From positions 5,332,001 to 5,396,000 of the forward strand of contig JAYWIR010000005.1 of assembly GCA_036172245.1 (NCBI GenBank): DNA of 64,000 nucleotides, read 5' to 3'. Numbering within the stretch: position 1 is the first letter of the stretch; each line of letters opens with the position of its first letter. The notes under the pieces are model-generated. The model had not been told where the DNA came from and did no database searches. It saw only the letters and a program-made list of their open reading frames with translations. Below, piece after piece: positions 17,351 through 57,000 of this stretch. The translations under genes and the position numbers were made by a program. This DNA is from Raillietiella orientalis (taxonomy: Eukaryota).

Positions 17351-17679
17351 TGACGAGATGGTGGAAATCCGTTTGGGATTCTTTTCTGTTGCCGCCGTTT
17401 TCCTTCCAGCTTTCTTCCCTTTCTTTTAAGGATTTTCTTTTTTGGGCTGTTCGCCAAGTACTGAAGAACAGCCGGTCACCTTAGGGAGGTGCTCACGAAG
17501 TTCTTTAGCATTGTTTACGCCAACCGAGAGTGCGTGTGACTCTTCCTCAAATTATAGGGGGTAACCCGGGAGGGACCACCTTATGAATCCAGGAAGACTC
17601 TGGAGAAAGGAGTACTTTCTTCTTACCCTTGGGGGGAAACCCCGAAGGGAACCATCGTCCTGGTTGTCCCCGATTTCCA

Positions 17680-18400
17680 CACGGACACGTGGGCGCGTTT
17701 CTTGAAATTTTAAAGAAACTCCTATATTGTGGCAGGGCACGTGATCCTACCACACGCCACTGTGGTCCACGGACCTGCCGGGTAGCCAGTGTGCAGAGCG
17801 GCGGGGCTTCCCTCGGCAGCGGATGGCGATGGGAGAAAACAAAAAGAGTAAATAACAATAAATAAACATCTTTGGGAGGGTCGACAAGGGACCACTGTCC
17901 GCTGGAGGGAATCTGCATCCTTTCCAGGGTGCCGGCTCGGTCCGTCGGAATAGGTCCCAGGCAGGGGTCATCTGGCCGCTGGCCTCAGGAAGCGAACTGC
18001 GAACCGGACGGCATCCCTCCCGTCTCTCCCTCTCTCGGCTTCGCTCCAGGTGGTCACGATCCCGCGGATGCAACGAAGAGCTGCTGGGGCTGCGGTTGGC
18101 TGCAGGGAGTCCCGCGTGAAGAGGAGCCTTGAAACGTCCCTAAGAGTGCCAACCGGGATCCGAAAGGTCGTTCCGATACGTTCCCACGGGGTTTGGAAAG
18201 CAACACGGTTCAGGAGCAGGTGCGGGAGAGATTCCCGTTCTCCGCACCTGCGGCAGTCCGGGCTCACCCTCCCCAGCGTCCAGTGGTGCTGCCGGCGTGC
18301 GCTGCAGGGAAGACCCCGGTTGCAACAGTGGTGCAAGTGCCAACACTTCAGTGGAAGCGGGAGCTGCTCTTTTGAGCACTGGAGGCCATTCCAGGTCTTC
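17680..18400 (-). mobile_element. L1/Tx1-like LINE 3' fragment
   Basis: CRRCGERESLPHLLLN...WERIGTTFRIPVGTLRDVSRLLF (C-terminal Cys/His motif), followed by a U-rich 3' UTR homologous to 41560-42250 and 45400-45985. Confidence 0.8.
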
Positions 18401-18409
18401 GCTAACCTT

Positions 18410-18872
18410 CGTTCCTCTCACGCCTAGGAGGGATCCTCGAAAGGAAGCCCCACCCTGGTCGTCTTCGAAGTGAATCCGGAAAGGATCCGCTCCTTGTTTC
18501 CTCCTCTGAAGAGAACCCCGAAGGGACGCTCCCCAATCTCCTGTGAAGGGTCGGCCCTGAAGGGAGCAGTGCACTTCACACTCTGGAGAGGTATCGATCC
18601 ACCAACTCCAAGGTATGAGATGGGGAGGATCCCCCTGAAAAATAGGGACGTCTCCATTTGCACAACCGGGATGGACCCCGAAGGGTGAAATTCCAATCCC
18701 GGCCAATCATCGGGGCCATCCGGTTTTATTGGCTAGCAGTATTGCATCCGAACAGAGACTAACCAGCATCATCTTGCGGGAGGAACTCGAATCCACGATG
18801 CACCCATTTCCCTGGTGGGATTCGAACCCTTGGGGCCACGCGCTGAGACCTCAGCCACGTGACCTTCGACGC
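18410..18872 (-). mobile_element. tRNA-headed, hairpin-rich SINE-like repeat, copy 3 (tail piece at 17545-17672)
   Basis: B-box gggttcgaatccc (18817-18829, -). Body visibly aligns with copies at 52065-52531 and 52886-53705 (e.g. gcgtgagaggaacg, ttcagaggag, cttcctggattcata). Confidence 0.75.
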
Positions 18873-27406: not shown

Positions 27407-30400
27407 ATGAGTTATAAACAAAATATAAGAAATAGCTTCCTCTTTTGCTTGTTAAGTCTAACTTTAGAATCTGATTCATGGAGATGGGAAAGCATTGACT
27501 ACGAAGGTAAACAATTCTTGTTATCATTGATAGTTTCATTTTTGTTCATAATTGGCCAAAATTTTGATGTTTACTTCAAAGTATATTCTTACAGTAGGGG
27601 TAGATAGGAGGTACTGTGGGGGGGAGACAATGAAACAGCTTACTGCAAAGTTTTGGGACCTCTGTTTATCCTGTTACACTGGATTGATTGATTTTGTAAA
27701 GAATGCTTAAATTCTCATGTTCTTTTTATGTTCAAGATTTCAAATTACGAAAGTTTCGATTACATATTTATGTTTGAAAATTTTTAGGTTATTATTGTAA
27801 TGAAACCCTGATAAATGGTGCTTCCCTAAGTAGTTCTTCTGAGAAATTTGACAGAAAAGCAAAGCATGCCTTGTTAAATGGTGAGTTTGAAACTCTTCAA
27901 AGAAAGAACGTGTCTCATTTTTCATTTCATTTTGTTGCAAAATAATGATAATCTTGGAAAGTTTGCCTTATATAAAATAGATAAGTAGCAGCAAGACATG
28001 TTTTGAGCATGTTGGAGAAGATCTAGATTTAAGTTCTGAAGCATTTTCAAAACTTAAATCTAGATCTTAATTGAAGCACACAGAAGCACAGAATTTTCAA
28101 TTTCAAAAACCAAGTTGTAAATGTCTCTCTTTTTGCATTCCAGGTGATAGTGCCTGGTCAGCCTTTCGTTCTGATTTTAGTCAATATTTGACAGTTGATT
28201 TGAAAGAACCTTTTGAAATTACTGGGATTGCTACACAAGGCAGACAGTATTCAAAAGAGTTTGTGCGAGAATATCAGTTAAGTTTTGGTTCAGGAGAGCA
28301 TGATTTGCAGTTCTATAAAGATGCTTATGGTAATGCAAAGGTAATAGTTTTGAAAGCATTTCCTTGATCTCTTGTTTGTGAATACTATTTCTTGATTTTT
28401 GTAACATTAGTTAGTGAAACTGATTAAGTAGGGCAACAAATGTAAATTATTTGAAATTTTCATTTATTGTCCCACATAATCAGTTTCTTAAATATAAAAT
28501 ATACTGTGTTTTATACATATGCACATTTATATACATAACCTACATAAATGTATATGTGTATTCATATAAATTATCTACTTTGTGTTCTAAGTAGTACAGA
28601 TAAGTTAATGATGAGTTATGTACCAATAATTTGTTTCATGAGACTAAAAAATCATATCAATCATTTGTTTTTATTCCCTCCTCTTCTTTGTCACTATGTA
28701 GAGGTTTCCTGGAAATAGGGATAGCAGCACTATAGCATATAATCACTTGCCATCTCCTATCCATGCACAAGTGATACGATTACACCCAATTCGCTGGAGT
28801 AGACAGATCTCTTTGAGGCTTGAGCTTTATGGATGTGCATACAGTTAGGCACTTCAGCTTATTTTTCAGGTTGATTGAAGATCTCTTTTAATAGATGCTG
28901 TTCAGTTACATTTAAATGGCAGCACTCTTCTTACTTGGGATCTCAAAGAAGAGCCAATATTATCTTTACAAGACAAAATACAGCTTCGCTTTCGTACATT
29001 TTATCCCAATGGCATAATGCTGTACTCCCTTGGATCCCAGGGTGATCTCTTAGCTTTGCAGCTAGTACGTGGTCACCTTTTGTTTACTATTGATCTGGGT
29101 AATTTTTGCGATTGATATTGCATATGAATATATTTTGTGATTAGGCTCAGGACAGGCCACTAATGCTGTGGCTGGAAGCCTCTTAGATGATACCCTGTGG
29201 CATGATGTTCTGATAAGGAGGTACAAGCGGCAACTTATACTAAGTGTAGATCATGTGCAAGCTGAATTTAATATTGCGGGTGACTTCAACCAACTGGATT
29301 TGGATCAGTTCCTCCTAATAGGTGGTGCACTGTTTTCATCACCAGGAATTGTTGTTCGTCAAAATTTCACTGGTTGCTTTGAATCCTTATATCTTAATCA
29401 AACCAATGTAATTCAGAAAGCACAGGCCAGTTATTGGCGTGTCAATTCCATTCATGCTTCATATAGTTGCTTGGTAATGATTTAATTGATCTGATTCTCC
29501 CTAATGTGTTTTACTTAGGCTGAGAACATTGTGCCAATTACTTTCTTAAGTTCTGGTGCCTATGTTCAGTTGTCAGGGTATGAAGACTTGAATAATTTGG
29601 AAGTTTCGTTGGAGTTCCGAACATATGAAGAAGCTGGCATGTTGCTGCATCATCGTTTTTTATCTAGGGGATCACTTCACTTGTTTCTTCAGAGTGGACA
29701 CCTTTTGTTAAAACTATCCAATATTGCAGGAACTCCTGATGTGATATTGGACGATTTTTCTCACTTGTTTTTGAGTGATGGATTGTGGCATCGAGTTGCT
29801 GTTTCTGTGTCAAAGAACAGCATTATACTTATGCTTGATGACCAGAAAATGCACACTGAACGCATGCTTTCTGTGCGCACTGGTAGACAATATTTGCTGG
29901 GTGGAGAAATGGGCATAGGCCATTTTGTGGGCTGTATGCGACGTATCAGCATTGATGGCAATGCACAGCATCCTCCTAATTGGAATGAACAGCAGTACTG
30001 CTGTTCTGATACACTTCTCATGGGTGTATGCCAGATGACTGATCGTTGCATGCCTAATCCATGCCAGCATGGTGGTGTTTGTCGGCAGAATTCCAAAGAG
30101 TTCTTCTGTGACTGTACTGATACTGGCTATAGTGGACCTGTTTGTTATTCCTCAACTGGATCTTTATCCTGTGAGACTCTGCGATCAAAATATTCAGACA
30201 GCAAAGTCATTTCCGCCCTTTTGGATATAGATGGAAGTGGTCCTTTAGATCCTTTCAAAGCTGTGTGTCATTTTCATTGTAAGTATAGAAAATTGTGTGT
30301 TAACTGATTTGCCATATTCTGTTTGTAGCTATGGGTAGAACTCTCACATCAATAGAGCATGGTGGTCCAACTGGGTCCATGATTAGTGGATTTGACCGTC

Positions 30401-32405
30401 CAGGCTCTTACATTCAGGATGTCCGCTATGATGCAGATGATGCTGCTTTGACTCTTTTTGTGAATCGTTCTCACAGTTGTCATCAGTCTTTAATATATGA
30501 ATGCCGCTCAGCACGTCTGTTAGGTGCACAGCATTCTGATGGTTCCTTCGAGCCTTGGTCTTGGTGGGTTGGTCATAACAACCAGAAAATGGACTATTGG
30601 TCAGGAGCACCTAGAGGATCACGCAAATGTGCTTGTGGTGTGCTGAATTCTTGTATTGATCCAAAGCACATGTGCAATTGTGATGCAGGTTAGAAACTTT
30701 GATCTTTTCTGTTTCACTCTGTTCATAGGGTTGGACTCCTGGCAAAGAGATGGAGGAGATTTGACTTACAAAGAGCATCTTCCCGTGCGTCAGATACGAG
30801 TGGGAGATACTGGAACACCACTGGATCACAAACAAGCACGGATTACATTGGGACCTCTCTTCTGTGAAGATAACGGTAGAGCAATTATTAGTTTACTGTC
30901 GATGTAATCAGCGCTTTGTAGCCTTATATGACAATAGTGTGACTTTTCGCCGTGCTGATGCCACCCTTGAATATCCTACTCCCATTCTGGGTAACACATG
31001 GGACATATATTTTGAGTTCCGCACAACTTCAAGCAATACAGCCGTGCTTCTTCATGTTTCCGGTCCTACTGACTTTATCCGTGTGTCTCTAGTGGGGCAA
31101 CAGGAGCTTCAGTTTGCATATGAAGCTGGTAGTGGAAATGTGGTGCTCAGCATTCCCACCTCATTCTGGCTGAGTGATGATCAGTGGCATTCTGTTCGAG
31201 TTGAGCGAAACCGCAAAGGAGCAGTTGTTGTCCTTGATGGGTCTTTGAAATCTGAAGTCCGAGATCCAGAAGGTTCCTTTCGACCTCTGCAGCTGCATTC
31301 TAATCTTGTGCTGGGTGCCAGTGTAGATGGCAATAATGGATTTGTTGGCTGCTTAAGATCATTAGTAGTGGACGGCACAATGATCGATCTCAAGACTCCT
31401 GCTGAAAAAGGAATTTATGGTATAGGTTCTGGCTGTAAAGGTCGTTGTGTCTCCAATCCTTGCTTGAATAACGGTACCTGCCTTGAAGGATATGATTCCT
31501 ACACATGTGACTGTCGTTGGACTGCTTTCAAAGGTCCAGTTTGTGCTGATGATATTGGTGTCAATATGCAGACTAACTACATGATTCGTTATGATTTCCT
31601 TGGTGGTTACAGATCCACAATCAATGAAAACATCCATGTGGCATTTTCAACCACGGATCCTCGTGGTTTCCTGTTAGCTCTTACATCAGATATATCCAAG
31701 GAATATTTGATATTAATGGTTTCCAACAGTGGTCATTTGCGTCTGATATTTGACTTTGGATTTGAACGACAAGAAATTGTGTATCCTGGAAGAATTTTCA
31801 ATCAGGGACAGTTTCATGAAGTAACAATTCGGAGGCTGGAGTCAGGAACTGTTTTAAGTTTTCAAGTGGACCAACGTCCCCCTCTTAAAGTGCGTTTTAC
31901 TGTTAGTGGCTCGGCAGATGTCCAGTTCAACAACATCCAAAGATTGTATGTAGGTAGAAATGAGAGTATGAAGGAAGGATATGCAGGATGCATCTCTCGT
32001 GTTTATTTTGATGACATTTTTGTGTTCAAACAGTTGTTTCAAGAAGACAGACCAGAGAATATTATGAGCATACCAGATCGTATTTTGGAGGATACATGTG
32101 GTGTTGAACCTGTTACACATCCTCCAGAGATTGAAGAAACTCGTCCCCCACCTCCAGTTGACCAACAAAAAATCGATGCATATTCTTATTCAGCAAGTCC
32201 AACCATTCTTGGAGTGGTTCTAGCAATTGTTTTCTTAACATTTTTGGTTGCAGGAATTTTGATAGTGCGTTATATGGCACATGAAAAAGGGGATTATTTG
32301 ACTAAGGAAGATGAAGGCGCAAGAGATGCACCAGATGCTGATTTGGCTATAATCAAATCTTCTACAGGCCATAGAGTGCCTCTTAAAAAAGAATGGTATT
32401 TATAG
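27407..32405 (+). CDS. Nrx-IV: Neurexin IV / contactin-associated protein (Caspr) orthologue, about 1271 aa
   Basis: Ten phase-consistent GT-AG exons: 27407-27506, 27788-27880, 28144-28340, 28702-28843, 28895-29098, 29145-29473, 29519-30278, 30329-30688, 30729-30875, 30922-32405 (3816 nt). Signal-like N-terminus, discoidin F5/8 domain (GIATQGR, LRLELYGC), LamG x2, EGF, fibrinogen-like region, LamG, EGF, LamG, TM, 4.1-binding motif (HEKGDYLTKE) and PDZ-binding end EWYL. Confidence 0.95.
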
Positions 32406-37963: not shown

Positions 37964-39419
37964 CAGGTAGTTCTCGACTTATCGACGATTCACATTTACG
38001 ACGGCCAATTCTCTAACTTAACTTTGCCTCCGGCATATACATAATGTTAGCCCTGGTGGATCCCCGATCCTCTCCTGATGCTCGTACCGGTGAATACCCG
38101 AGCTTGCCAGGGGAGGAGTAGCTAGAGGGGATTCTAAGGGGTTCTTCTAACTTATTACGCAGTCTTTGGCATGGTAGTAATGAATCAGCGATAGAAGTGT
38201 TCGTTACTCTCGTTGCAACTTTTGTGTTTCACCGTAACCCTTCCACGTCTAGTAAGAGAAACAGCACTCCTGATGAAAATTTCAGCATGATAAAAAAGGC
38301 AAGGAAAACTTATATGTTAGAAGGAAGGTCATTAAAGCATATGATAAAGGAAAGACAGTCGGTGAAACAGCACGAGAAAAACAAGCATCGCATTCAACTG
38401 CTTCAACACTTATAAAAGATAAATCAAGAATAGTGGAGGCAGCTAAAAGGGCAGTTAACATGAAATGTAGAATTTTAACGAAAAAAAGAGAAGGACCAAT
38501 TCATGAAACGGAGAAGCTTTCAGTGATATGGATAGGTGATCAAATCAAAAGGAATGTTCCTCTCAGTTTGTTTACGATTCGAACAAAAGCACGCAACTTA
38601 TTTGACAATTTAAAGGAACAAGAAGAAGATAAACATGGGGATCATACATTTATTGCTAGTAAAGGTTGGTTCTGTCGCTTCGGAAGCCGATTGAATCCGC
38701 ACCAACGTGCGAATAACGGGAGAAGCTGCTGGCTCCGATGTTGGAGCCGCCGAGCTGTTCAAGAAAAGTCGGAAGGAGGCGATAGAAGATGAAGGCGAAA
38801 GAGCTGAAGAAGAGGAAAGAAAGAATGAGTGAGGGAAATCGTTAAAGAAAAACTATGAACTGTGAAAGGATCAGCTGAAGTATTTTCTGAGCGGAATCAA
38901 GGACTTCAGCCACTCGAAAACGTGGATCAAGACACGGATCGCTTCGCCAAAGTCGAAAGGCAAATTCGCGAAGCAGTTAGATGTCATAACGAAATTCATG
39001 AAGAAAAAAGAAGGAAAAAACAACAGCAGGCAACATGAAGGAATTTTTTTAATTAAAAAAATTACTCCTGATTGCGGAAAATAAGCGTACCGTTCAAACT
39101 AAAAAATCATTTAATGAAACACCGTTACAAAGTTTTTTGTTTATGTTTGCATCATTTTTGATGTGCATGTATATATTTTTTTCTTAAGTTCTTCTTTCTT
39201 AATTTCGTACATATTTGTGTATTTACATATACACTAATAAATAACTTATTCATGTTTATCTCAGTTTATACATTTTTTTAACCATTTTACGTTAAACGAA
39301 GATGTTACGATAGAAATGAAACAAATCAAGAATTCAAAAAAGTCCCCGACTTACGTCAGAACCGACTTACGACGGAGACGTCGGAACGGGATCCCGTCGT
39401 AAGTCCCGAGGACTACCTG
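37964..39419 (+). mobile_element. Internally deleted Tigger/pogo DNA transposon
   Basis: TIRs ta|caggtagttctcgactta and taagtcccgaggactacctg|ca (TA target site, one copy mutated). CENP-B-type HTH remnant ETEKLSVIWIGDQIKRNVPLSLFTIRTKARNLF...FIASKGWFCRF. No DDE domain recognisable; about 1.46 kb. Confidence 0.9.
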
Positions 39420-39829: not shown

Positions 39830-41500
39830 TTCCCGACATGCAGGTCGGGCACACTGAGAGTTCGGAACAGCAGGGAGGGGACAATAAATAAGTTAATATA
39901 GTGGGAGGGTGGGGATAGGGGTCTGCAGTTCCAGCCGTTGTTATTCTCAGAACCGGTGGTGAATGCCGGCAACCTCCGTCCTCACTTCTTCGTCGAGGTG
40001 TGGCCACCCAGCAGCCAGTTCCAGATTGCAGGCTGCACTGTTGGTAACCGCTGTTGCGGGCCGCTCGCATCTGCAATACGTGGCGGGCCCTGACAATGGC
40101 GCGGATGCAGCAGATGATTGCGACGACCGCTCCCAGAGATAGACTGCCACGCGTGAAGAAGCGGCGCATCCAGTCCATTGCGGTGCGCCCGGGATGCAGG
40201 AGCGCTGAGGACAGCCACCGCCACAGTCCCTGGAGGACACCGCAGTCGAATAGCAGGTGCGGGAGCGATTCATCGCTCCGCATCTTTCACAGTTACGGGT
40301 GGGACTCCCCCGGAAATCAGGTGCGCGCGCTGGTTGCAATAGAGACCCCAATGCACCAGAAGAAAAGCGTCCTATTTCCGACGAAGGGGGAACACAGTCG
40401 TGTCCACGCAGGAGGGCGGAACCACAAGTTCTTCGGAGTGCACTCTCAGGAGTTCGCTGCACCCAAGAAGTCCCTTGGCACGATGGCGAGGCGTGGCAGC
40501 GGCTGCCAGCTCGCTCGTTCTCCAGCCGCTCAGAGGTCGGGTTTGTCCTGCGATTGAGTAGGCGACCTCCCACCTTGCCGGTAGGCAACTGTCTTCTCGT
40601 GCCCTTAGGGCAGACAGCGCTTCGGCGAGGAGCGAAGCGGCTAGACGATTCCACTTGTCCTGGTTCTGCAACACCTCCTCCACTGGACAGAATGAAGAGC
40701 GGTTCACGCAACGGAGTTCCAAACGGGACACGTCCTGATGCGTTGCCCAGGACGATAGAGTCTCCTGCCACCAAACATTAAGGTTCGTCGGCCAGCAGGA
40801 GATCCACGAATGCGTTTCCAGGAGCGAGGCGAGCTGCCTCGGCGGGAAGCCGAATCCTCTCCTGGCGTACTCAGCATGCGGTAGCAGCGAAAGCAATCCG
40901 TCGCCACCCATGCAGCTCCGCATCAGCAGCCGCGCGGGAGCACACCATGGAGTCGTCCAAAGCTGGGCACAAAGTGCCAGCATGCGAAACTGCACTAGCA
41001 GTCCGATCCTTTCCAGCGTCAGGATGCCCAAGCCGGTATCCCGACGAGGAGCCGCCAAGTCCTTGAGGCGGATCCTGGACCTCGCAGGTACCCCAGAAAG
41101 CGTTCCGCGACAGGCGTTTCGCCAGGAGCTTGGCCAAGTAGGGAGGCGGACAAACAAAGAAAAGGGGATGGAGGAGGGGGGCAACGAAAATGCTCCACAT
41201 GAAGGCCCGCTCCGGCAGGAGGAAGCTGCGACCTTGGAACGGACCCAGAGCAGTCTCGGCCTTGTGAAGGCAGTCCGACCACGCTTCTACTGGACAGAAG
41301 GCGCCCAAGGGAACGCGAGGGTACTTAAAGCACCTGCCCGTGGGGATCCCCAGGCGGATCGCCTCTCCCACGTAGAGCCAACCGGTACGACTGTGGATTT
41401 CGCCCTGTTGACGCTCACGCCCGCTCCTCCGTAGGGATGCCGAGCAGCTCTCCCCATCGCAAAAGTCCACGAGGAAAAAACTCGGGGTAGTGGCATCTGA
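39830..41500 (-). mobile_element. Decayed L1/Tx1-like ORF2 C-terminal half (second subfamily)
   Basis: VNRAKS...IRLGIPTGRCFKYPRVPLG...KDLAAPRRDTGLGI...CERCG/ESLPHLLFDCGVLQGLWRWL; frameshifted and paralogous to 41560-43990. Confidence 0.85.
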
Positions 41501-41559
41501 CAGCTATCCCATGGTCCAACCACTCATCTTCTTCTCTCTGCCTGCGACAGGGGCCACCT

Positions 41560-43990
41560 GAATGGACACGGGGGCGTTCCCATCCGGTCACGCCGGGGCG
41601 TTTATTCCTAAACTCGGTACATTTGCGGTACGAAGCCCCGCTACGGCCAATAGACCGTGGGGCCTGCCGGGAAGCCGGTGCGCAGACCGGCTTGACTCTT
41701 CTCGGCAACCGTGGGGATGGGGGAGAAAACAAATATAAAAATAAAAAGGAAAACAAAAAAAAAGAAACACTTGGGTGGGCAGGGAAGGGATCGCTGTCCG
41801 CTGGAGGAAGAGATCATCCTTTCCAGAATGCCCTCGATGTCCCTCTGCATAGCTCCCAGATGGGACCATCCGATCGCGATTCGCAGGTAGCGACCCGCGT
41901 GTACGATGGGGTCCCTGTCGCTGCTTCCTCTGTTGGCTGCGCTCCACGAGGCCACAATCCCTCGGAGGCAGCAAAGCGCTGCCACGGTTGAGGCTGGTTG
42001 CAGGGCGTCTCATACGAAGAGGAGTCGCACAACGTCTCTGCGGGTACTGCCGACCGGCATCCAGAGGACCGTAGCAAAATGTTCCCACAAGGTCCGGAGG
42101 CCAGTGCAGTCCACTAACAAGTGGGGGAGGATTCCTTCTGCCCGCACACTGCACACTTCTGTCCCACCTTCCCCAACGTCCAGTGGTGGCGGCGCGCGTT
42201 GCAGGGAATACCCCAGTGCAGCAGCAGCAGCGCCGTTTCCTGCCACTTGAGGGGGAGGGTGGATGCGTCTCTGAATACCGGGGGCCCCTTTAGGTCATCC
42301 AGCGGGATGCCCAGCAGCTCACCCCATCTCCGAATTCCTCGCGGGAGGGCGCTCGGGGTCGTGGCGTCAGCCAGTTCCCTCGTGGTCCAGCCGCTCATCA
42401 TCTGCTCCCTGACCGCTATCCAGCAGGAGATTTGCCACCTCGGCGTTCGGCTGCTGCCGAGCACCCTCCTCAAGAAGGGTAACGCCGTGGACAGTGGGGT
42501 CGTCTCCGCCCACGTACTTCTGGAGGGACACTCGAGCATGTTCCGCAGCGTGCAGCGGGTGTAGATGCCGGGTCGCAGGCGGTTCCACGATTCACCACTT
42601 GACTGGTTTAACTTCTCCCACGTGCCAACTGTTTCTTCCAGACATGCGCTGGAGTTGGTGGGGCTGCAGGCCATCCAGCCGTTCTCCTTAGCCAGGGTGG
42701 CCATGCGTCCCAGGAGAAGGCCGCATCTTTTGATCTTCCGGCCGCGGCACAGAAGATACGACGCGAGACCCTGCATCCCGGATACACGGCTGGAAAGGAG
42801 GCGGTCCGGAACGCATCAATGGGTGCTCCAGTACTTCGCCGCGATGGCCGAGGTTCGCCATTGCAGCTGAATTTTCATCCGCCCTAGCGTCAGGAGGCCA
42901 AGAGCGCCATCCCGACGTGGAGCGCACAAGTCTTGCAGAGGCACATGGGGCTCCCGCTGCCCCACAGGGCGATGCGCAGGAGGTCCTTGGTTCTCTTCTT
43001 CATCTCGCGGGGTACGGGCAAACAAAGAGCAGGGGGAGAAGAAGGGGGGTCGCGAACGCGTTCCACACCGCGGCCCGATCCGGCAACTAAAAATTACCTT
43101 CCAGGAACGGGCCGATCGCCGACTCCACTTTCTGGAGACGACCTGACCAGGTTTCTAACTGGCAGAAGTCTCCCAACGGAACGCCAAGGTATTTTAAGTA
43201 CCTCTCCGTGGGGATCCCCAGGCGGATCCAGTCAGGTCGTCCTGCCCACGTTGCACCAACCGCAACCAGCGACGACTTCGACCTGTTCACCCGTAGTGCT
43301 GTCCCGCGGCTCAGCAAGTCGAAGAAATGCTCGACTGCCGAAGCCGCTGCGGACATGGACAGCAGGAGCAGAAGATCGTCGGCATACGCCGACACGGCCG
43401 GCGTGCCGCGGCACGAGCTCTACAGGGCAGCCAATGTCACCCTGTATGCTCTCAGAACCAGTTCGAAATAGGGGCTAAAGAGCAGGGGACTCAGGCTGTC
43501 GCCCTGCCTTATCCAGCGGCGCACCGGCACGCCGTACACATTCTGACTGCTGAAAAAAACTTTTATTATCGCACTGCGCCAGCAAGAGCGCAGGTAGATC
43601 AGTAGGGAGGGTGGGAAGCCCATGCGATCCAGGAGCTCCGGAAGGAGTTCCTGGTCCAAGCAGTCGAACGCCTTATGGTACTGTGCCTTCGTCTCGGATC
43701 AGCCGTGTCAACTCGAGCACCAGGGGTTCAGCTCTGCCGCGAAGCACTGAAAAAACTCCGCCGGCAGGCCGTCCTCCCCTCGCGCCTTACGCCTCTTCAG
43801 GCCCGCTATGGCGGAAGACACTTCTTCCGCCGTTAAGTGGAAATCCAAATTGGCGCGTTCCTCGTCGACAGCAGGGGCATCCACCGGCAGAAGCAGCTCC
43901 GAGAGACTGCGTTCCGTCGGCTCCCTAACATACAACGAGGAGTAGTAGCGCTTTAAGAGGCGGCGAACATCGGCTTTGAGTTTCCCCTTC
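41560..43990 (-). mobile_element. L1/Tx1-like LINE ORF2 (reverse transcriptase to 3' end), 5'-truncated and frameshifted
   Basis: EEVSSAIAGLKRRKARGEDGLPAEFF, KAFDCLD, IRQGDSLSPLLF, SAYADD, LRVNRSKS, KYLGV, a C-terminal CAVCG...HLLVDC motif, then a 3' UTR with AATAAA. Confidence 0.93.
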
Positions 43991-44152
43991 CCACGCGCCT
44001 CGGGAATGGACCTAACCGGTCTCGGCACCGGCATTCGACACGTATGCCAGCGTGGGAAAACCAAGAATTTTCGCACCAAAACATATCAATAGACTTTATT
44101 AACTAATTTAATATGAATTAGATTAATAAATGCCCCGGCATATCCGGGTGAC
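43990..44152 (+). mobile_element. 3'-terminal fragment of the same LINE family in opposite orientation
   Basis: ccggtctcggcaccgg hairpin and the aataaatgccccggcatatccgggtg terminus. Confidence 0.6.
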
Positions 44153-44464
44153 AAACATCGGCTGCGCTCGAGCATTCCAGGTCCTGGTCGTCGAACAGAC
44201 AAGCTGCTCCCGACTGCCAGACCTGGCGCTCGGCTTTGACCTTGTACTCCGCAAGATACCGGACGTCCGGGCATCGGGAGAATCGGCGGGTCGGGAGCGC
44301 GCGCCCCTGTTGCCGCCGCGGCGACGGGGTGATGGAGCGCCCGTTCAGGGAGGTCGACCTGGAGACGGAGAAGCTCTAGGGAGACGCCGCCTATTCCTGA
44401 TCGCAAGCAGATGGCCCGAAACTGACCACTGGCATTCGGTCGAGCCCTTCCCGCCTCCGAAATG

Positions 44465-45330
44465 GAACTCACTTTTCGGAGGTGGCCCTTTTCTCCGCAG
44501 TGGAAGCACTGGATGTGAGGGCACCGTTTTTTCAGGTGCCCTGTGGCATCGCAGTGTCCACAGTACTTGGGTTTTCCCACGTACCAAACATCGACCGTCT
44601 CGTTGTCGATGTCCAGCTTGTGGAGTAACCCGCCGTTTTCGTGCACAGTTACACGCGCTGCGACCATGCCACTAAACAGCCCTCCATAGGTTTGGAAGAC
44701 GTTGGGCTTGGTCCAGAGAGCGTGTACTGTGCCGTATGTACTGAGTTCCTCCTGCACGCCGGATTTCGACATCCGGAGGGTAACTCCAGTGAGGTGCGCT
44801 ACAACTGAGCGGTCCTCAGTCACCGGAAAGAGCTTTCTGCCCTCCAGCGTAATGTTTCAGCGGTATTCAGCAGGCGCTGAGCCAGGCTTGCATCTTTGCG
44901 AGTCAGCTCCACCCGCTGACCCCCACTAAGGACGGAGAGACCTTCCAGCTCCTCCTCCCTCACGTTCAGCCGCTGCAGCTCCTTTTCGAAGGAGCATGCA
45001 ATCCTTTCATCGAACATACTGCCTACCTTGTAGATCAGCAACGGCTTGTAGCCGATGGCCTTGTAGGCAGTCTGCTCCGCTACTGCAGCCGGGGATGGTG
45101 CAGCAACGACGGCACTCCAACTCTTCTCCGGTGGCGAAGAGGGTCGCGAAGGGGCGGTCGCCGCCGATTTCGATGGGGCAGGTGCCTTGGATTCCGTGGG
45201 GGGGGGCGAATGCCCCCACTTCCATGGGTGGAGGAGAGCAAGTCGCCTCTACCCCCCCGCAAACTCCATCGCGGTGTTCTCAGGCATTTCTGCCATGGGA
45301 CACCGGAGATCCCACACATCACACAGAACC
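44465..45330 (-). mobile_element. L1/Tx1-like ORF1 remnant (RRM-like region plus two CCHC zinc knuckles)
   Basis: LSTYGTVHAL...VWYVGKPKYCGHCDATGHLKKRCPHIQCFHCGEKGHLRK; frameshift near 44820 and truncated within the second knuckle. Confidence 0.85.
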
Positions 45331-45399
45331 AACAAAAAGCTTCCCACCGACCAGTCCGCGGAGAGATACGAAAACACGTCCGCTCGCTAGAAGGACCCG

Positions 45400-45985
45400 G
45401 GGGGGAGTGAATCCGAACTGTGCCAGGTACGGGGAACGTGAATCCCTCCCGCACCTGATAGTTGACTGTGTTGCCCTCCGGTCTCTTTGGGAACGTTTCG
45501 GGAGGACCCTCGGGATCCCGGTGAGCAGCCCTCCCAGAGACGTTTTTCGGCTCCTCTTCGTGCGGGACGCCCTGTAGCCAGCCGCAGCCGTAGCAGCGCT
45601 CAGCTGCATCCGCGGTATTGTGGCGGCCTGGAGTGGATCCGACAAAGTAGAAGATGCAAACGATAGGGACGTCATCGAGTATGCGGCTCGCTTCCTGCGA
45701 ATAGCAGCCCGATGACCCCACCTGGGAAACAGGCAGAAGGACCTGGTTGGCATCCTGCAAAGGATGGACCCTTCACCAAGCGGACAGTGATCCCTTCTCG
45801 ACCTTCCAGAGAACTATGGTTTTTTCAGTTTTTTTTATTTTTCTTTTTGTTTTTTCCCCATCCCCCTCCGCTGCCGTGGAGAGTCAGGTCGGTCTGCGCA
45901 CCGACGACCAGGCAGGTCCCTTGTCGTATTGGCCGCAGCGGGACCTTGTACCGCAAATATAGAAGTTTATAATAAACGTCCCGGT
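45400..45985 (+). mobile_element. L1/Tx1-like LINE 3' fragment, opposite orientation to its neighbours
   Basis: CARYGERESLPHLIVDCVALRSLWERFGRTLGIPV...RDVFRLLF, followed by the family 3' UTR and aataaacgtcccgg (45971). Confidence 0.85.
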
Positions 45986-46129
45986 CAGACGTTGAACGCG
46001 ACTCTGCACCTGTGCGCGAAGCCTTGCCGCCAGTGTAGCGTCCCGTCTGAGCGCTCTTCAGATCAGCTACCTACTGTTCGTAGATGTGTATCCCCTGCAG
46101 CAGCACCAGATCGAACGCGCGTAGGGAGG

Positions 46130-48110
46130 TAGCTACCGTCCGCCTCTTGTCGGCGTCGCCCAGCCCGTTGACGTTCCAACAGGCCACGCTGACGCGACGA
46201 GCGGACGCGAGTCCACGCATTACTGCTGCGGACATGTCGGCGTGCTCCTCGCCTCGTCCGGCGAGGTGTCAGCTGGCAGCACTGAGGATTGGGAAGAGGA
46301 ATCGCTCCCGTTCTCCACCATGCCGCACGCACCTGAGTCCTGGGAGCCGAGAATCATTGCCTCGGGCTCCGGGGAGAGGCTGGAACCGCTACCGGCAACA
46401 GGCTCGTGCTTGCGCACTTTAGCCTGGAGTGTTCCGGGATTTCCCGGGGATCTGCGCTCCTTTGCTTTGCAGTCGGACTCTAGGTCGGAGTCCGAATGCC
46501 GCGCGAGAGACTAGCGTTTCGCCTGTTTCTTGTTGTGCCGGGAAGTGGAAACTTGCCCGGCCTGCGCGGGGATCGCCGCAGTCGCCACCGCAGCCCCCGG
46601 CTCTTTGGCTTCTGCAGCGGCTCTCTCGCGCGAAGCGACAGCGACAGCGCATCCAGCGGGAGTGCAAACCTTGATTTACGCCTGCTTTGGCGCGCTAGGC
46701 TTCTTCCTTACACCTACCTTCAGAATGGGGAAGTGGGAAGGGTCCACCTTCTTCCCCTTTCTAGGTTTCCTGGCCACCTGAGTCCAGTCCGCATCGCTGT
46801 CCTCTTCCACTGCATCCTGGGAGGCCAGAGCCTTCCATGCTTCTGGACGGTAGCTAACGGCTCATTTTTCGCAATCGCGGCGAGACGGCTCCGCCACCGT
46901 TGCCTGTTGCATCTTCGCTGGTGCGGGTGAACTGGCAGGTATTTCCGTCATCGCGCGATGCGTTGCAGCCTTCGCTGCCAGTGTTTTCACCGTGGACGGC
47001 GTGCTTTCCCCGGACTGAGGGAGGGACGGCCGCTCAGTGGCAGTTTCGAGTGTCTCCGCGCGTATTTTCCCGTCCCTTCCGTTCGACGCGGGAACGGACG
47101 CGGACGGTTCAGTAGCCTTTTTTGAGTATTTACCCGTTAGCTGCTTCGCGCAAGACTGTTTGTTCCCAGGGTGGCGTGGCATCTTCCCCTTATGCGCGGC
47201 TTTCCGACATTGTTTCTTCCCTGAAGCAACCTGCCCTCTTTTGAGGGACTGCCACTCGCTGCAGCAGCGTCATTAGCGCCCGATTTCTTTCCCGGCGAGG
47301 CGGGGGAAGTTTTCGGGGAAAACGACGCCAACTGGAGGTGATTCCTCGCCTGCCGTTTGCGCTTCAGCTTGGCGCACTTCTTAATGGAGTGACAGAGCAG
47401 TTTGCAGTAGCGGCAGTTGCGAGAAGGGCACTTCCAAGGACGGTGGCCCTCCTTGCCGCAACTGCCGCAATCCGGCCACTGAGCGGCAAACTCCAGGTGA
47501 AACGACCGCGTCGTCCACCTGGAGCTGCGAAGGCAATAGCCTCCGGTCCGTCATGGTGACTCGCACCATGGCGAGCCCGCTGTGAGAGAGGCAATCCTTT
47601 TGATAGGGTTCGCTATTCTCCATAGTGGTGAATGCACCCAGCGCACTCGCAAGCGGTCGGTAGTTTCCACCCGGATGGCGGACAATTAGACCACGAATGA
47701 CTGGTCCATGGCCGACCTCCTTCCCGCGGATGTTCAGCGGGGAGCGGAGGCGTTGGACTGGGGCTGCTTGTGCACCTGCCAGTGTCCAAGCGCATTCACA
47801 GGCATGACAGCCAGGAGGTCGTCCTGCCGGAACCCGACGCGCTCGTCCCATAAATTTCCTCCGACCCTGTCGGAGACCGAGGCACTGACCTGGTAACAGA
47901 GAGCAGGCTTGTAGCTATGGGCTGCATATGCCTGTTACTCTGCTTCTTCGGGAGGTGCTCCGTTTGCTGCTGCCGCCTTGACGATGGCGGCAAAGCTTCT
48001 TGCCGGTGGCGAGACAGAATCATCAGAGGCGGGCAGAACAACCGAAGTAGGAACTCCGGAGCAGGCTGCCTCCACCTCCATCCTCTCTTGTGTCGGCGCC
48101 ATGAACTTCC
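46130..48110 (-). mobile_element. Second L1/Tx1-like ORF1 remnant
   Basis: SFAAIVK N-terminal motif; tandem knuckles CGSCGKEGHRPWKC and CRYCKLLCHSIKKC (47373-47469); long low-complexity tail; several stops and frameshifts. Confidence 0.75.
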
Positions 48111-50398: not shown

Positions 50399-52064
50399 AT
50401 GATGAGCGAGCATTCCCAAAAGACAAGCACTGAGAAAACAAACGAACCACTGAACCTCCCTCCGCAAAGAAGCAAACACATAAACAAGAGCACGGCAAAA
50501 AAAAAAAACACGCCAGCTGTAGGAAACAGCTCCTTTCCTTCCCATGAGATTCGTTAGAGCGAGCAAGCCAGAAGATTATTAAACAGTGCCTCGGGGTTAA
50601 CTTCGCTTCCCCGTCGAGACCGGCTCCCGATGGGAACACAGAGAGCGTCCAATTGTGGTTTCGGTACTCCTTCCACTTCACGTCCACTACATCTCCACCT
50701 GGCTTTTCACCTTGCCAAGACCCATTCTGAAAAGAAACAGAAAGGAATGTCACCAGCAGGAATAACGGGGTGAAAGTGGACAAGCGAGCGAACGGACCCT
50801 GACTAAAAGTGGTCAGGATGGGGAGCTCTTCGGCAGTTTCCCAGCGCGGAGAACGAAAAGGAAGAGACGCGTGCTCCCTCTCGCATTCGTACCTCTCCAG
50901 AAGGGAACTTCCGCGGACCCCGCTTTCGAAAACTTTATCCCTGCTTCAGCCCCGAAGAGAAGGTCCGCCCCGCCCTGTGATCTGCAGAATGCCTAGCAAC
51001 ATCTGCTCCCCAGAAAGCTCCGAACGGAGACGGGTTCCCGAGCAGATGGATTCGTCTCCTCTGAAGCTCCCGTATTCTTCCGGAAACCGCTTATTAGGGA
51101 AAACCGCTCGCCGTTTCTAGACGGGGGATGGGGGTGGGGTGCGCCTGTTACCTCGGGATCCTCCACGAGAACGAGGAAGGCCTCCTTTCCTGGGAGGAAG
51201 CGAGCCGTTTCTGAACTGTCCGAGTCATCCCCCAATGCGCAGGACTGCGGAGTTCCAAAAGTTAAGGGGTAGAGGGAAAGTGAAGCGCTAGCCGGCGGTT
51301 CCAGGCGTCACGAAAGTCCGCGCAAGTGGTACGTGAGCTCCCGGGATGTCACCTCGGAATGTGAAATGCATCCGACAAACAGAAAGAAGAGAGATAAAAA
51401 TGGGGCAGGGATGGGAGAACTGGAGAGAAGCTGGGGTGCTGAGCGAAGAAAGCGCGCCGGAGCTTCACGCGAAGCGCAACTTCTCAAATGGAAAAGCAGA
51501 GCACTGCCATGGAAGCCCTGACCAACAAGGGCAGGCATGAGAGCTAACAAAAAAGGGGAGGAGAGAAAGGCTGTAACAGGAAGGAGAGGTGGAACGAAGA
51601 AGGTGGAGCAGGACGAAAAGGAGAAGACAAAGATGGATGAGGGAGGAAAAGGAGCCGGAAACGGGAAGAAAGGAGTCTCTGCTTGCTGATCAACATCCAG
51701 AGGAAACAACCCGAACGAGTCGCTCGGGGTGATTTCTGGGGGCACCACCGACCGGCCATTGGCAGGTGCAGCGCAAATTTCCCTTGCAGATCCGCGCCGG
51801 AGATAGAGATGCCACGCTGGATCACCCGGAGACTTCGGGAACAGTGAGGCAAGCCACAACGCAAGTCACACGAAACGCGGGAACAGAACCAGCGAAGATT
51901 TCGGGAGATCGGGACACGCGAACTGACACGCTCTGGAGCACGCACCTTCCGTCACGCGCGCACGCAGTGAACGCCGAGGTGGCAGCGAGTGGCTCAAGAC
52001 GATCCTTTTCGGGCGGGACGGAAGTCCACGAAAGCTACTTTGCTGCACGTACGCACGTGCACAG

Positions 52065-52531
52065 AGCTTCTGGAATTTCCTCTCCGGAAGGAACCCGCAA
52101 GGGAACCATTCCTGTTTACTCCTCTGAAGAAAATTCCGAAGGGACGCTTCCCAATTTTCTCTGAAGGGTCGCTCCTGAAGGGAAACTTCTCGGACACTCT
52201 GGAGGGGCAACCCCTCTAGGAGGACATGGAGCAGCTGCATGGTACGGCTTCCCTTTCATGACCGGAGGGGAACCCCAAGGGGAACTAATTCCTTGCTTTC
52301 TGGAAGGACCCGGAGGTCGACTCACGACCCCGGCCACTCATCGAGGCCATCCAGTTTTATCCGCTACCAGTGCCGCATCCGAACAGAGGTCAACCAGCGT
52401 CATCTTGCGGGAGAAACTCGAATCCACGACGCACCCATTTCTCTGGAGTAGATCTTTCCCCGGGTGGGATTCGAGCCCGCGATGCTTGGTACCACGAGCG
52501 GAGACCTCAGCCACATAGCCTCCGACGCGGG
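52065..52531 (-). mobile_element. tRNA-headed, hairpin-rich SINE-like repeat, copy 2 (3'-truncated)
   Basis: Head cgtcggaggctatgtggctgagg...gtggtacca...cgcgggctcgaatccc matches copy 1. Body ttcagaggag...ttcccttgcgggttccttccggagaggaaattcc matches 53387-53445. Confidence 0.8.
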
Positions 52532-52885
52532 CCAGGGCTTCTGGAGAGCTGCCGCCCGGCACTCTCTTCTTTCTGACTGCTCTACTTCGGAAAAGAGACG
52601 AGCGTGAAGATGAGATACCCGAACCAGTTCAGCAAATCTGCCCCAGGCAGCTGGAGCCGGATTCTGGTTCAGAAGAATGGGGAACAAAGAGATCGTGCAG
52701 GCATGCGCAAGCAGGAGACGCGCGCGTTCACTGCATGAACACGCCCTAGGCCTCGATCCCATCCCCAAACGAATGTAACCCGCCAGGGCAATGACTGGAT
52801 GAAACCTGTGTACATTGACTGAGGAATCTGACCCACCATGGAACGAAGAAAACGAAACTGATTTCCCCTCAAAAAAAAAAAAAAA

Positions 52886-53705
52886 GCCCCCGTCGGAGGC
52901 CTTGTGGTTAAGGCTTCCGCGTGTGGTACCATGCGTCGCGGGTTCGAATACTTCTGCAGAAACTCTGACGCCACTGCGTCGTTTGGGTTCCGAGTTTCTC
53001 CTGCAACGGCGCTGGTTGGCCGAGACATTCGGGCGTGGCCCCGGCGGTGGATAAAGCCGGCGGCCTCCCGATGAAGGCCGGAACAATGGGAGTCGACCTT
53101 CGGGTCCTCCCAGGAATAAAGGAGTGGGGAGTTCCCCCTCCTGTGTGCAAAGGAGAGTGGACCCCCGTCACCGGGGGAACCGCCTCCGGTTTCAAGATGG
53201 AGCAGGAGCCCTCACGGGCACCTCTCCAGTCGTTCAAAGGAAAGGACCCCCCCTGTTGGGGGGACCCTCCGAGTCGTTGCCTCTTCACAGAGTGTGTACA
53301 AAGGAAAGAAGCTAAGCGAGAGCGATTCCCTGCGGGAAGCTGCAGCGCCCCTTCTGAGTTTCGGAAGCACCCCTGTGGGGGTTGTCTTCAGAGGAGTGAA
53401 TAAAGGAGCAGTTCCCTTGCGGGTTCCCTCCGGAGAAGAAATTCCTAGAGGCGGATCCTTTCCGGGTTCCCTTCGGAGAAGTTGAAATGGAGAGGACCAC
53501 CACCCCGCAAGGGGGGGTGTCCCTCCGGAGAGAATGAGGAAGGAGAGATTCCCTTCGAGGTTCCCCTTCGGAGACAACCAGGGTGGGAGGTGCGATCCCC
53601 TCCGTCCGGGGGGGATCCCTCCCCAAGCGTGAGAGGAACGGACTCCGAGCCCTTCCTGGATTCATAGGGCGGATCCCCATCCTGGGTGCCCCCTATCCTG
53701 AAGAA
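52886..53705 (+). mobile_element. tRNA-headed, hairpin-rich SINE-like repeat, copy 1 (longest, about 820 nt)
   Basis: A-box-like aggccttgtggttaagg (52897-52913) and B-box ggttcgaata (52941-52950) at tRNA-like spacing, followed by an array of short C-run/G-run hairpins. Two other diverged copies occur in the window. Confidence 0.8.
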
Positions 53706-53770
53706 TTATACTGTTACACGCCCCCCTGCTGGTTGCTGCGGGCGGAGAGGCGTGGAAACAAAACAGTGTG

Positions 53771-53776
53771 TTTAAT
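53771..53776 (-). promoter_or_regulatory. Possible polyadenylation signal (ATTAAA) of TMEM245
   Basis: ATTAAA on the - strand about 265 nt past the stop, followed by a GT/T-rich stretch (tgttttgtttcc). Confidence 0.4.
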
Positions 53777-54038
53777 GTCAAAAAAAAAAAAATAGATTAG
53801 CTCTCTTGACGCACATCTCGAACCACGGTGGATGGCCAACCAACGAGTTTTCGAACTGCCAAGCCGACCGTTCTAAATCGCTCCCATGTCCAAAGCGTTT
53901 CGAATCCTTTAGCAACTTTAAGGAATTCCGAACTAAGCACACAGACCCGAAAGAGTAGATCCCAGCCTCCCCTGCCGTGCTCTTCTGACCACACTCACCA
54001 TCGATGCAGGGCAACATGGCAGGATACCTGCGAGTGCT

Positions 54039-57000
54039 TTACCTTTCCATTAGCCATGGGTTCTTCGCTTCACTAGGAGGAACATATATGAAGTTTTGAT
54101 AGACGTTGATACCGATCACTAGGCAACACAGCAGTACTGGTCCAAGGATGGCTCCCTCAATTCCAAGAAACAGAACTCCTCCGGCTATAGCCAAGGCTGT
54201 CAGGTAGGGATGACCATTCCTTGTTCGGAAAGGCACTGTCGAATAATTTGCGTGGGATCCCCTATTTACGTACCCTTTCACTTCAGAGTAAATTACGTTG
54301 TCCACCATGAAGACAGGAAGAATCAGAAAGATGAAAAATAACAAAGCAACCGATCCATTTCCTGTGAGAACGAGTTGCATGATGGCTGGCAAGCCAGCCC
54401 AATAAGGTCCAAGAATAGGGACTGCTGCCAAAGCTGCAGCCATGACTGGGAACGCTTTCAATGAAACTGCCTGGGAGAAAAGTGAGGATGCTTACAGGAA
54501 GGTATGTAGATAAAGGTGATATGAAAGAAGCTGTGAATGAGCCACGTCCATATACCGTAGAATAAACACATCTTAAAAGATGCCAAAAAAACGCTGTTGA
54601 CTGCTGCTTCTACAGCCAGACCAAACCTAAGTGGACATTATTGGGTGGGATTCGCCTTGCCACTAACTTCGTGTTGGTTCCTGGCATGACCTGAGCACAT
54701 ATCTCCACTGGCTTGTATAGGATCTTGCTGGATGTTAGCAGGTAGCACAAAGCAGTCGCGAAGATGATCTGATGAAGACCGAAATGAATGGCAAGGAGAT
54801 GGAGCCTCACCATGTTGATAATCAGGCTGAACAATGCCGAGCCTCCTCCTAGGAGCACTTGCATCAGTAAAGAGAACGTGCTGAAGGCAAGGCTGAGGTT
54901 GCTCAAGGCAGCGCTCCATACATGCTTCAGCACCGTTAGCAAGAAATCCAGATTATCGACCACAAAGTTGTAGAAAAACATTGGGTTCAAGAGAACTGGA
55001 GACAAGTTTATGTGCTTTAGATTCATCCTTACATCTACCAGCAGATGACTGATTGTGGTTGCTGAACACCAGCTCCCATGTGCTGCTTCGACGTCTGAGT
55101 TTCATGCTGCTGCTGTTAAAGCTATTGTAAGTGACCCACTGCTCGTAAAGACGATCCCAAATCTCCAAAAGCTGACGCTCCACTTCTAGCGCTTTATCTT
55201 TCTCTGCACCCGAAAAGCTGCGTACCTGATCCGAAGGATGTAACCGAAGGAAAGCATCTTTTACTGACCTGGTCAGATATCCAATGACGACCGTAGAAAT
55301 AGGTGTTGTTGAGGATCATGTCCATAGAATTTTGGAACCCGTCCGAGTGAAACGCATCGTGAGGTAACAAGGAGCTGTTGACGAGACTGCCACCAAGCTC
55401 CAGCAGCAAACGTGACTCCTTGTACACTTGCATGACCAAGAAGCAGCTGCAGAGAATGGTCAGCACAACTCCCGATATGAGAATAGCGGAGGTTGTCAAC
55501 GCATCAACGGAATTCTCCAAGTACTTCATGAAACGGCGGTCTAATTCAAACAGAGTCTGAGGCAAGGAGCGAATGGGCATTGGCAAAATATTTTGTTGCC
55601 AATCCTGACACCAATTTATGAGCCTGTTACGGAACTGACTTTCATGAGTCACCAGTGTCCAAAAAAAGAAACCTAATGTACATTAAAGAACATGAGCATC
55701 AGCAGGCGTACCTAGTGTCTTAAGCACAGAAAGGCCAATTGGAATAGTCAAGAAGTAAATCATCCAAGGATGAGAGAGAAACTCATGCAATAAGGAGGCC
55801 CAAACGACAGCGAGAATGCACACGTTGCTAGTAATCTGAGCTGCAATGGTGATTAACTTCGAATATCTAAAAACAGGAAACCTGCAAGCTAACCTTTCTT
55901 TTCGATCGTCTTGGTGTGAGAGCAGCTTCCCCTGTTATCAGAAGAACCAGATTTATCAGCTGAGTGCTGGTGATGTGGATCCTTATGTTTCGATGATACA
56001 GGTTTCGACTTACCTTAGACGACTTCGGATCCAAGGTGCCATCTAATGCCGCTTCATCGATTGATTCTTCCGGTCCTAAAAAGCAGAACACGCATCAGTT
56101 ATTTATACCGAGAAACAGTACGCATACTAATGTAAAGGTGTCATGGTGAGTAATTAAAAGTACAATGCTAATTGCTAAGCAACAGCTAGAAATTAAAGCA
56201 TCCTATTCTGGTCCATCAACTACGAATCCTACGGCACACGGGAAACAACTACACATATACGTAAACACTTTCTCGTGTAAACATTAACTCTTGGAAAACC
56301 TGTCTGTATAGCAATAGGTGACGTTCGGCCATAAAATAACACCACGTAATATCCGTAAATTTGTCACATATACGACACGCTGTGTATTAGTCCGTCAGAT
56401 AAGAGTAAGGAAATTCAGTAAACTAGTCTCTGTGAAGGCGACTTGATGGACTATGTGCCTTCAAGCTCGGAGACGCCGCAGATGCCAAGGAAATCTTTCC
56501 ATTACAGTCGTGCTCAAGTGCACCGCTACATTGACTCCGAAGTGCTCTTGGTGAAACGTGGTTTCCTGCTTAAGCAAAATTCGATCCCTCACAAGAGAGC
56601 TAAAGAGTCCCGGGGACTCGATAGCCGTCCTTCACTCCCTACGTAAAGCCGGAGGAAGTCTCAGAGCAGCTAGGAACATGAGCATCAGCAGGCAACGATC
56701 CTAACGTTAGCTAGGAATGGAATTCTCGCAACTGTTCCGTTTTCCTCATTTGCAACTCTTTCATCTTACAGTATGCTGCTAAACAGAGGTTTCCTATCGA
56801 TTTGGCAAGGACGCATTTTGCAAACCGTGCATATGCCTTTCGAGAGCATTTTGCATGTGGTCGCATTTTGCATGCAGAAACCCTGGAGAGCTTTTCTTTC
56901 TGGGAAGCTAACGCACATTTCGGAATCAGATGACACACTCCATTATGACTACGTTCGTTCATCCTCTCTTCCTCAGAGGAACCCGTCTCCCTAATCCCAA

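Follow-up and report, generated by a model that had tools for sequence, protein, structure and literature searches.

A probable SINE-like retroposon of about 0.9 kb with a tRNA-related head and an array of hairpin modules in Raillietiella orientalis

The stretch of Raillietiella orientalis DNA analysed here, 64,000 nucleotides in length and referred to below as the window, contains an element, copy A, that consists of a tRNA-related head, a body of degenerate hairpin modules and a terminal run of adenines. With a probability of about 75% we consider copy A to be a fairly young, non-autonomous SINE-like retroposon of ∼0.9 kb, whose hairpins stem from the duplication of a palindromic module and are decaying neutrally. 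This reading builds on the anatomy of the element, its three copies in the window, its dispersal, the varying number of modules, the excess of stems in copy A and the similarity of the head to tRNAs. A preliminary description of this DNA had proposed a long structured SINE. The first part of this proposal fits well: the element is non-coding, shorter than 1 kb and dispersed, its 5′ end is fixed in all three copies, and a tRNA-related head is combined with an A tail. To call it ‘structured’, if this is to mean that its RNA fold is under selection, goes further than the data, as both strands fold alike, the older copy B and 5′ part of copy C show no excess of stems, and the covariation concerns 8 pairs in an alignment of 3–4 rows.

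The layout of copy A and the positions of its relatives are given in Table 1. Behind the head, an 8-bp long-range stem (52958-52965/52992-52999) encloses a 5-bp hairpin. The modules of the body share an order of elements, namely GGAG, a C-run, a loop, a G-run and CTCC, followed by a purine-rich linker. In the 74 nt of the 3′ region we found a single 5-bp stem (53756-53773). Plain A runs occupy both junctions of copy A, so that no target-site duplication could be delimited; this geometry fits an A-rich insertion site, without proving it. The A15 run on the 5′ side may be a copy of the target site or the tail of an older retro-copy. It ends the 353-nt spacer (52533-52885) that separates copy B from copy A, which stand head to head; this spacer may derive from the tail end of a further retro-copy that received copy A.

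Table 1. Positions of the element, its parts and its relatives within the window
Feature	Position	Strand	Basis or remark
A15 run, immediately 5′ of the element	52871-52885	plus	read from the sequence
Copy A	52886-53793	plus	908 nt with tail, 894 nt without tail
tRNA-related head of copy A	52886-52951	plus	box-like motifs; alignment to E. coli tRNAs
A-box-like motif (head, +12)	52897-52907	plus	motif match
B-box-like motif (head, +56)	52941-52951	plus	motif match
Post-head region with three stems (52958-52965/52992-52999, 53041-53060, 53061-53080)	52952-53087	plus	
About 14 degenerate hairpin modules, 31–65 nt each	53088-53705	plus	
Stems named in the preliminary description	52958-52965/52992-52999, 53041-53060, 53061-53080, 53095-53106, 53162-53177, 53208-53219	plus	sequence
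Stems named in the preliminary description, continued	53247-53263, 53326-53338, ccc-ttgc-ggg near 53414, 53503-53514, 53594-53617 (one T.G)	plus	
Unique 3′ region, 74 nt	53706-53779	plus	common to the 3′ part of copy C and the run X1 contig
A14 tail	53780-53793	plus	read from the sequence
Copy B	52068-52532	minus	nhmmer E 2.1e-36 with a single-sequence profile of A; 67% identity to A over 456 aligned columns
Copy C, 5′ part (head, post-head region, modules)	18426-18871	minus	nhmmer E 8.7e-12 and 7e-9
Copy C, 3′ part (last modules and 3′ region)	17525-17674	minus	nhmmer E 3.5e-09

Two related copies had been announced in the preliminary description, and nhmmer confirmed their existence, although on the minus strand; the added statement that they keep their hairpins stood in part only (see below). 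Copy B is older than copy A and stands head to head with it; several modules are missing from it, and its 3′ side is truncated. A cut at this side is unlike the usual LINE-type truncation and counts against LINE-mediated retroposition. Copy C is split by ∼750 nt of unrelated DNA (17675-18425, minus strand; T-rich near 17830-17870), which may be a later insertion. Because pairwise identities amount to 67% (A-B), 58% (A-C) and 72% (B-C), copies B and C are regarded as old. In all three copies the 5′ end falls on the identical base of the head. Several modules of copy A are absent from both B and C, and in copy C the start of one module is fused to the end of another that lies two modules away.

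Other element classes were considered for copy A. The sequence has neither terminal inverted repeats nor TC...CTRR ends, which rules out a MITE or a Helitron. A portion of a LINE was ruled out as well, since no reverse transcriptase was found nearby in the long frames scanned (56 of 59) and the contigs of other copies diverge at the ends of the element. Three long stop-free frames cross the element, and no Pfam family was found in them.

The dispersal of the family was followed in the contigs of two public sequencing runs, here called X1 and X2, which were compared with positions 52000-53900. In run X2 there were 127 matching contigs, 9 of them at 99% identity or more, 12 at 95–99%, 38 at 90–95% and 68 below 90%; of the matched contig sequence, a share of 0.55 continues into unlike sequence. 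In run X1 a contig of 955 nt spans 52902-53772 with 37 other letters and 19 gaps, carries only A5 after the element and then runs into a different flank. Because the contigs of both runs leave the element in this manner, we conclude that the family is dispersed, with the same limits as in copy A and a tail of variable length. The unique flanks (52576-52831 and beyond 53792) were covered by no contig, an outcome to which we attach no meaning. Three copies per 64 kb together with 127 contig pieces of run X2 suggest that there are many copies. A search of metagenomes for a 19-letter pattern common to A, B and C returned 117 loci, none of which was related to the element by nhmmer and none of which carried a tRNA.

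The element had been described as tRNA-headed, with A and B boxes. With ARAGORN at default thresholds no tRNA gene was found in the window; when the threshold was relaxed to 80%, Leu-like and Glu-like calls appeared in the heads of copies B and C, which we rejected because the same setting yields 36 matches window-wide. The Rfam tRNA model RF00005 gave no match at E ≤10 on 51900-53900, on the heads of B and C, or on 106-nt stretches. Across the window no Rfam family reached its gathering score, and the 9 sub-threshold matches (E 0.45–9.9) lay far under the cut-offs. The cloverleaf that would mark a tRNA gene or tRNA pseudogene was not found in the head. However, local alignment to 47 distinct E. 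coli K-12 tRNAs, a bacterial set only, gave best scores of 102, 93 and 84 for the heads of A, B and C, compared to 64.4 ± 6.1, 67.8 ± 8.6 and 69.8 ± 8.9 for 100 shuffles of each head, of which 0, 1 and 6, respectively, reached the observed score. SINEBase uses a mark of 60% identity across 60 nt; 2, 3 and 6 of the 47 tRNAs attain it (heads of A, B and C), but so do 48, 63 and 68 of 100 shuffles of these heads, so that with the local aligner used here the mark does not discriminate. Thus the description as tRNA-headed holds for a similarity beyond shuffles but not for the calls of the two detectors, and from these alignments the head appears to be related to tRNAs in general, with no particular source tRNA that could be named.

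The boxes are present as matches at the motif level. The B-box-like motif occupies the same position of the head in all three copies and agrees with the consensus at 10–11 of 11 positions, but across the window the consensus, if one mismatch is allowed, turns up about as often as expected by chance (16 occurrences versus 14.1). The sequence TTTT does not occur in the 894 nt of copy A, whereas 3.06 occurrences are expected; this absence, found also in 5.4% of shuffles, is marginal, and to that marginal degree it suits reading through by Pol III.

We then turned to the body, for which a periodic array of about a dozen hairpins had been claimed. The array itself was recovered, with about 14 modules; its spacing is loosely periodic at best (mean module length 44 nt). 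TRF found no tandem array in the element, and ungapped identity at fixed lags within the array was no higher than in shuffles, which together rule out a strict periodicity. When gaps were allowed, an internal repeat was detected between 53372-53526 and 53457-53622 (lag 85, 62% identity, E 6e-6). A module profile built from three modules of copy A gave 10 matches at E ≤0.05, all of them within the three copies and all in sense orientation. Seven contig joints skip parts of the arrays of A and B, with lengths of 72, 78, 79, 90, 122, 123 and 179 nt. Because these joints lie inside the arrays, we conclude that the number of modules varies between copies. The body is best described as a minisatellite-like array in which a palindromic module is gained and lost as a whole.

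All eleven stems named in the preliminary description were found in the sequence. In order to compare them with chance, perfect stems of at least 5 bp with loops of 3–8 nt were counted: copy A contains 14, whereas dinucleotide shuffles contain 5.91 ± 2.15, and none of 300 attains the number of copy A. With mismatches allowed and a stem score of at least 5, 15 stems were found in copy A and 7.06 ± 2.05 in shuffled sequences (2 of 200 reach). Among the 900-nt bins of the window, copy A is the richest with 14 stems (window mean 6.74, sd 2.59), and six further bins hold 13 stems each. The 820 nt originally singled out fold at −379.8 kcal/mol versus −350.8 ± 7.8 kcal/mol for shuffles (z −3.70; 0 of 20 reach). 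The antisense strand of copy A gave z −3.17 in the same test, and local folding resulted in z −3.75 for the sense and −3.30 for the antisense strand. Such near-equal folding of both strands is what DNA palindromes give. Among the recurrent short words that had been pointed out, the linker word AAAGGA is enriched in the body (6 versus 0.51 expected; 0 of 500) and so are loops of the UUCG type, with CTTCGG occurring 3 times on the sense strand of the body versus 0.22 expected (1 of 500) and also found in copies B and C; an enrichment of GCAA was not seen (2 versus 0.98).

The older copies differ in how far they retain this excess. With the same stem score of at least 5, copy B and the 5′ part of copy C each hold 3 stems versus 3.16 in shuffled sequences, whereas the 3′ part of copy C holds 4 versus 1.42 (2 of 200). 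The claim that copies keep their hairpins is therefore borne out for the 3′ part of C, a result that counts against neutral hairpins, and not for B or the 5′ part of C. When the sense strand was folded locally, copy B reached z −0.68, and the 5′ and 3′ parts of copy C reached −2.69 and −1.06, respectively; the antisense strand sometimes folds better than the sense strand.

For a test of covariation, the stems of copy A served as the structure on an alignment of A, B and both pieces of C, that is 3–4 related rows, and both of these features inflate the contrast. In this alignment 84.1% of 232 cells pair; without the 115 cells of copy A itself, about 80 of 117 do. Eight pairs have changed on both sides, compared to 3.6 ± 1.3 in shuffled alignments (1 of 500) and 0–3 in slid controls; at 3–4 rows this is a hint only of covariation. 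By aligned rows, helices are kept in B and/or C for the head hairpin, the 52958/52999 stem, 53041-53060, 53095-53106, 53326-53338 and 53369-53382. The helices at 52967-52980, 53061-53080 (where a GGCC core is left) and 53204-53223 are lost in B/C. A further six hairpins of copy A have no counterpart in B and C because these copies lack the respective modules. Motifs composed of a C-run, a loop and a G-run number 21 versus 12.3 ± 2.6, and the lengths of the two runs correlate (r 0.46, permutation 0.028). Mismatches in stems comprise 2 G.T and 0 A.C, counts that have no power as a test of the strand. Selection on the RNA fold is no more than hinted at by the two-sided changes.

Could the hairpin array be a selected, multivalent RNA scaffold? 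About a dozen stem-loops, set on purine-rich linkers, would then load several copies of a protein, such as an RNA-binding protein or the reverse transcriptase of a partner LINE, or they would shield and stabilize a long Pol III transcript, and source copies would stay hairpin-rich via compensatory changes while the number of modules turns over. Several of the observations point in this direction: the young copy A is the bin of the window with the most stems, the two-sided pair changes exceed those in shuffled and slid controls, C-run and G-run lengths correlate, and CTTCGG loops recur on the sense strand and are found in B and C. Also, on our reading of the X1 contig, pairing is preserved or regained by several of the changes that set it apart from copy A, such as those at 53558, 53601 and 53264. 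However, the structure tested for covariation was taken from copy A itself and the rows are few and related, run lengths may also correlate because duplicated modules descend from a common ancestor, and the mismatch counts carry no power. The antisense strand folds nearly as well as the sense strand in both tests, the sense strand of copy B is at the level of shuffles, six other bins come within one stem of copy A, and values of z −3.5 and −4.3 were obtained for GC-rich DNA that is unrelated to the element. We therefore regard such a scaffold as unlikely. A process at the DNA level could also account for the near equality of the strands, for an array that alters by whole modules and for paired C and G homopolymer runs that alter their lengths jointly. 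Quasi-palindromes are known to template mutations, and complementarity could be kept by hairpin-templated repair, by template switching at quasi-palindromes or by slippage, with the compensatory changes as mutational by-products. The stem excess has been lost in the old copy B and the 5′ part of C, so inserted copies are not kept palindromic, and on this ground we think this process very improbable as the source of the kept complementarity.

A different alternative concerns the promoter. The element might be a composite, VNTR-bearing retroposon with a build like that of SVA, transcribed by Pol II or by read-through, in which the tRNA-like head is a passenger and not the promoter. A GC-rich array of variable number in the middle of an A-tailed element would suit this, as would a head that is missed by tRNA detectors and a length, 908 nt with tail, beyond that of every family in the 2012 SINEBase survey (75–662 nt without tail; PMC3531059). 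On the other hand, three copies start at the identical base of the head, TRF found no 5′ simple repeat, copy A is free of TTTT and carries A-box- and B-box-like motifs at a tRNA-like spacing, and the head resembles tRNAs beyond shuffles. Altogether we judge a composite of this kind to be quite unlikely.

The reading that we prefer, a SINE-like retroposon with neutrally decaying hairpins, implies the following life cycle. An internal promoter of the Pol III type in the tRNA-related head would give rise to a transcript of the whole element of ∼0.9 kb, which the reverse transcriptase of a LINE would then copy into A-rich nick sites, with priming at the A tail. The array of a ∼40–45-nt palindromic module would grow and shrink via tandem duplication, slippage or unequal recombination, and the row of hairpins would be the inheritance of one hairpin-forming ancestral module. 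Inserted copies would decay, presumably neutrally, and lose their hairpins; a constraint on the fold, if any, could act on a few source copies only.

No reverse transcriptase or partner LINE was found in the window among 56 of 59 frames of at least 150 aa that were scanned. Other features were observed in the same stretch. Two long exons with Laminin G and EGF domains (29519-32405, plus strand) have their best matches in insect neurexin-4, with 57% identity over 90% of the query, and this makes an arthropod the most likely source of the window. An open frame at 38277-38792 (plus strand) contains a Tc5-type transposase DNA-binding domain (E 3.1e-09) and is probably the remnant of a pogo/Tc5-like DNA transposon. 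Just downstream of the element, an open frame at 54039-54491 (minus strand) is perhaps an exon of a membrane protein gene; it resembles the AI-2E transporter family, but at 25.9 bits the match stays below the cut-off of 34.3. The block at 40000-48000 is GC-rich (58–61% G+C) and bears many long stop-free frames on both strands; the sole Pfam match there, itself short of the cut-off, is to a zinc knuckle (44086-44856, E 6.6e-4) and is weak, and the block is possibly decayed retroelement DNA. Within it lies the GC-rich stretch 46000-46620, of a different family, with local folding z-scores of −3.5 on the plus and −4.3 on the minus strand.

How does the element compare with known classes? According to SINEBase, a SINE is an interspersed, non-tandem repeat that measures less than 1 kb, numbers 100 copies or more, carries a head related to Pol III RNAs, ends in a simple-repeat 3′ tail of variable length, and is reverse transcribed by the machinery of a partner LINE, as seen from target-site duplications and a shared 3′ end; 175 families are counted there, of 75–662 nt without tail and a mean of 253 nt (PMC3531059). 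The element is short, interspersed and non-tandem: it measures 908 nt, occurs in three places of the window and two orientations, and TRF revealed no tandem arrangement of the whole element. Its tail is variable, with A14 in copy A and A5 in the X1 contig copy. Like SINEs it shows the order head, body, tail, is non-coding and shorter than 1 kb, occurs in both orientations and carries box-like motifs besides the variable A tail. Unlike the SINEBase families, it is, at 894 nt without tail, longer than any of the 175, and its head is not recognized by tRNA detectors. We found no description of such a family in searches of the literature.

Two further comparisons concern the body. The SVA elements of hominoids begin with a 5′ hexamer repeat and arrange Alu-like and retrovirus-derived parts around a central, GC-rich VNTR. 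Like SVA, the element holds a GC-rich array of ∼40-nt units in variable number within an A-tailed retroposon, which suggests an L1-type mobilization; unlike SVA, it has no 5′ hexamer repeat and no Alu-like or retroviral part, and its tRNA-like head bears Pol III box motifs. As it starts at this head, with no 5′ simple repeat found by TRF, the element does not belong to SVA; the likeness concerns the build only, and nothing points to common descent. In the 3′ regions of LINEs and SINEs, stem-loops are recognized by the reverse transcriptase of stringent-type LINEs (PMC5135761). The small stem-loops of the element could likewise serve recognition by a copying enzyme. However, the stem-loops in those 3′ regions are single and near the 3′ end, whereas the dozen of the element sit in its middle.

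The statement that SINEs lack such arrays proved too strong, for the quasi-oligomeric SINE CHRS has a degenerate tandem body of more than 10 units whose number differs among copies, as in the element. The units of the element are about twice as long (31–65 nt, mean 44) and each contains an inverted repeat, and its host is an arthropod; the two share the quasi-oligomeric build, and their likeness is one of build only. Should source copies turn out to keep their hairpins by compensatory change, the family would clearly exemplify selection that acts on the body of a SINE's RNA. Recognizing the family guards against misreading the element as a structured non-coding RNA gene. The element is of an ordinary class and of an unusual build: its length places it at the top of the SINE range, and its tRNA-like head is combined with a palindromic, minisatellite-like array, a rarely described arrangement to which CHRS is the nearest case in SINEBase.
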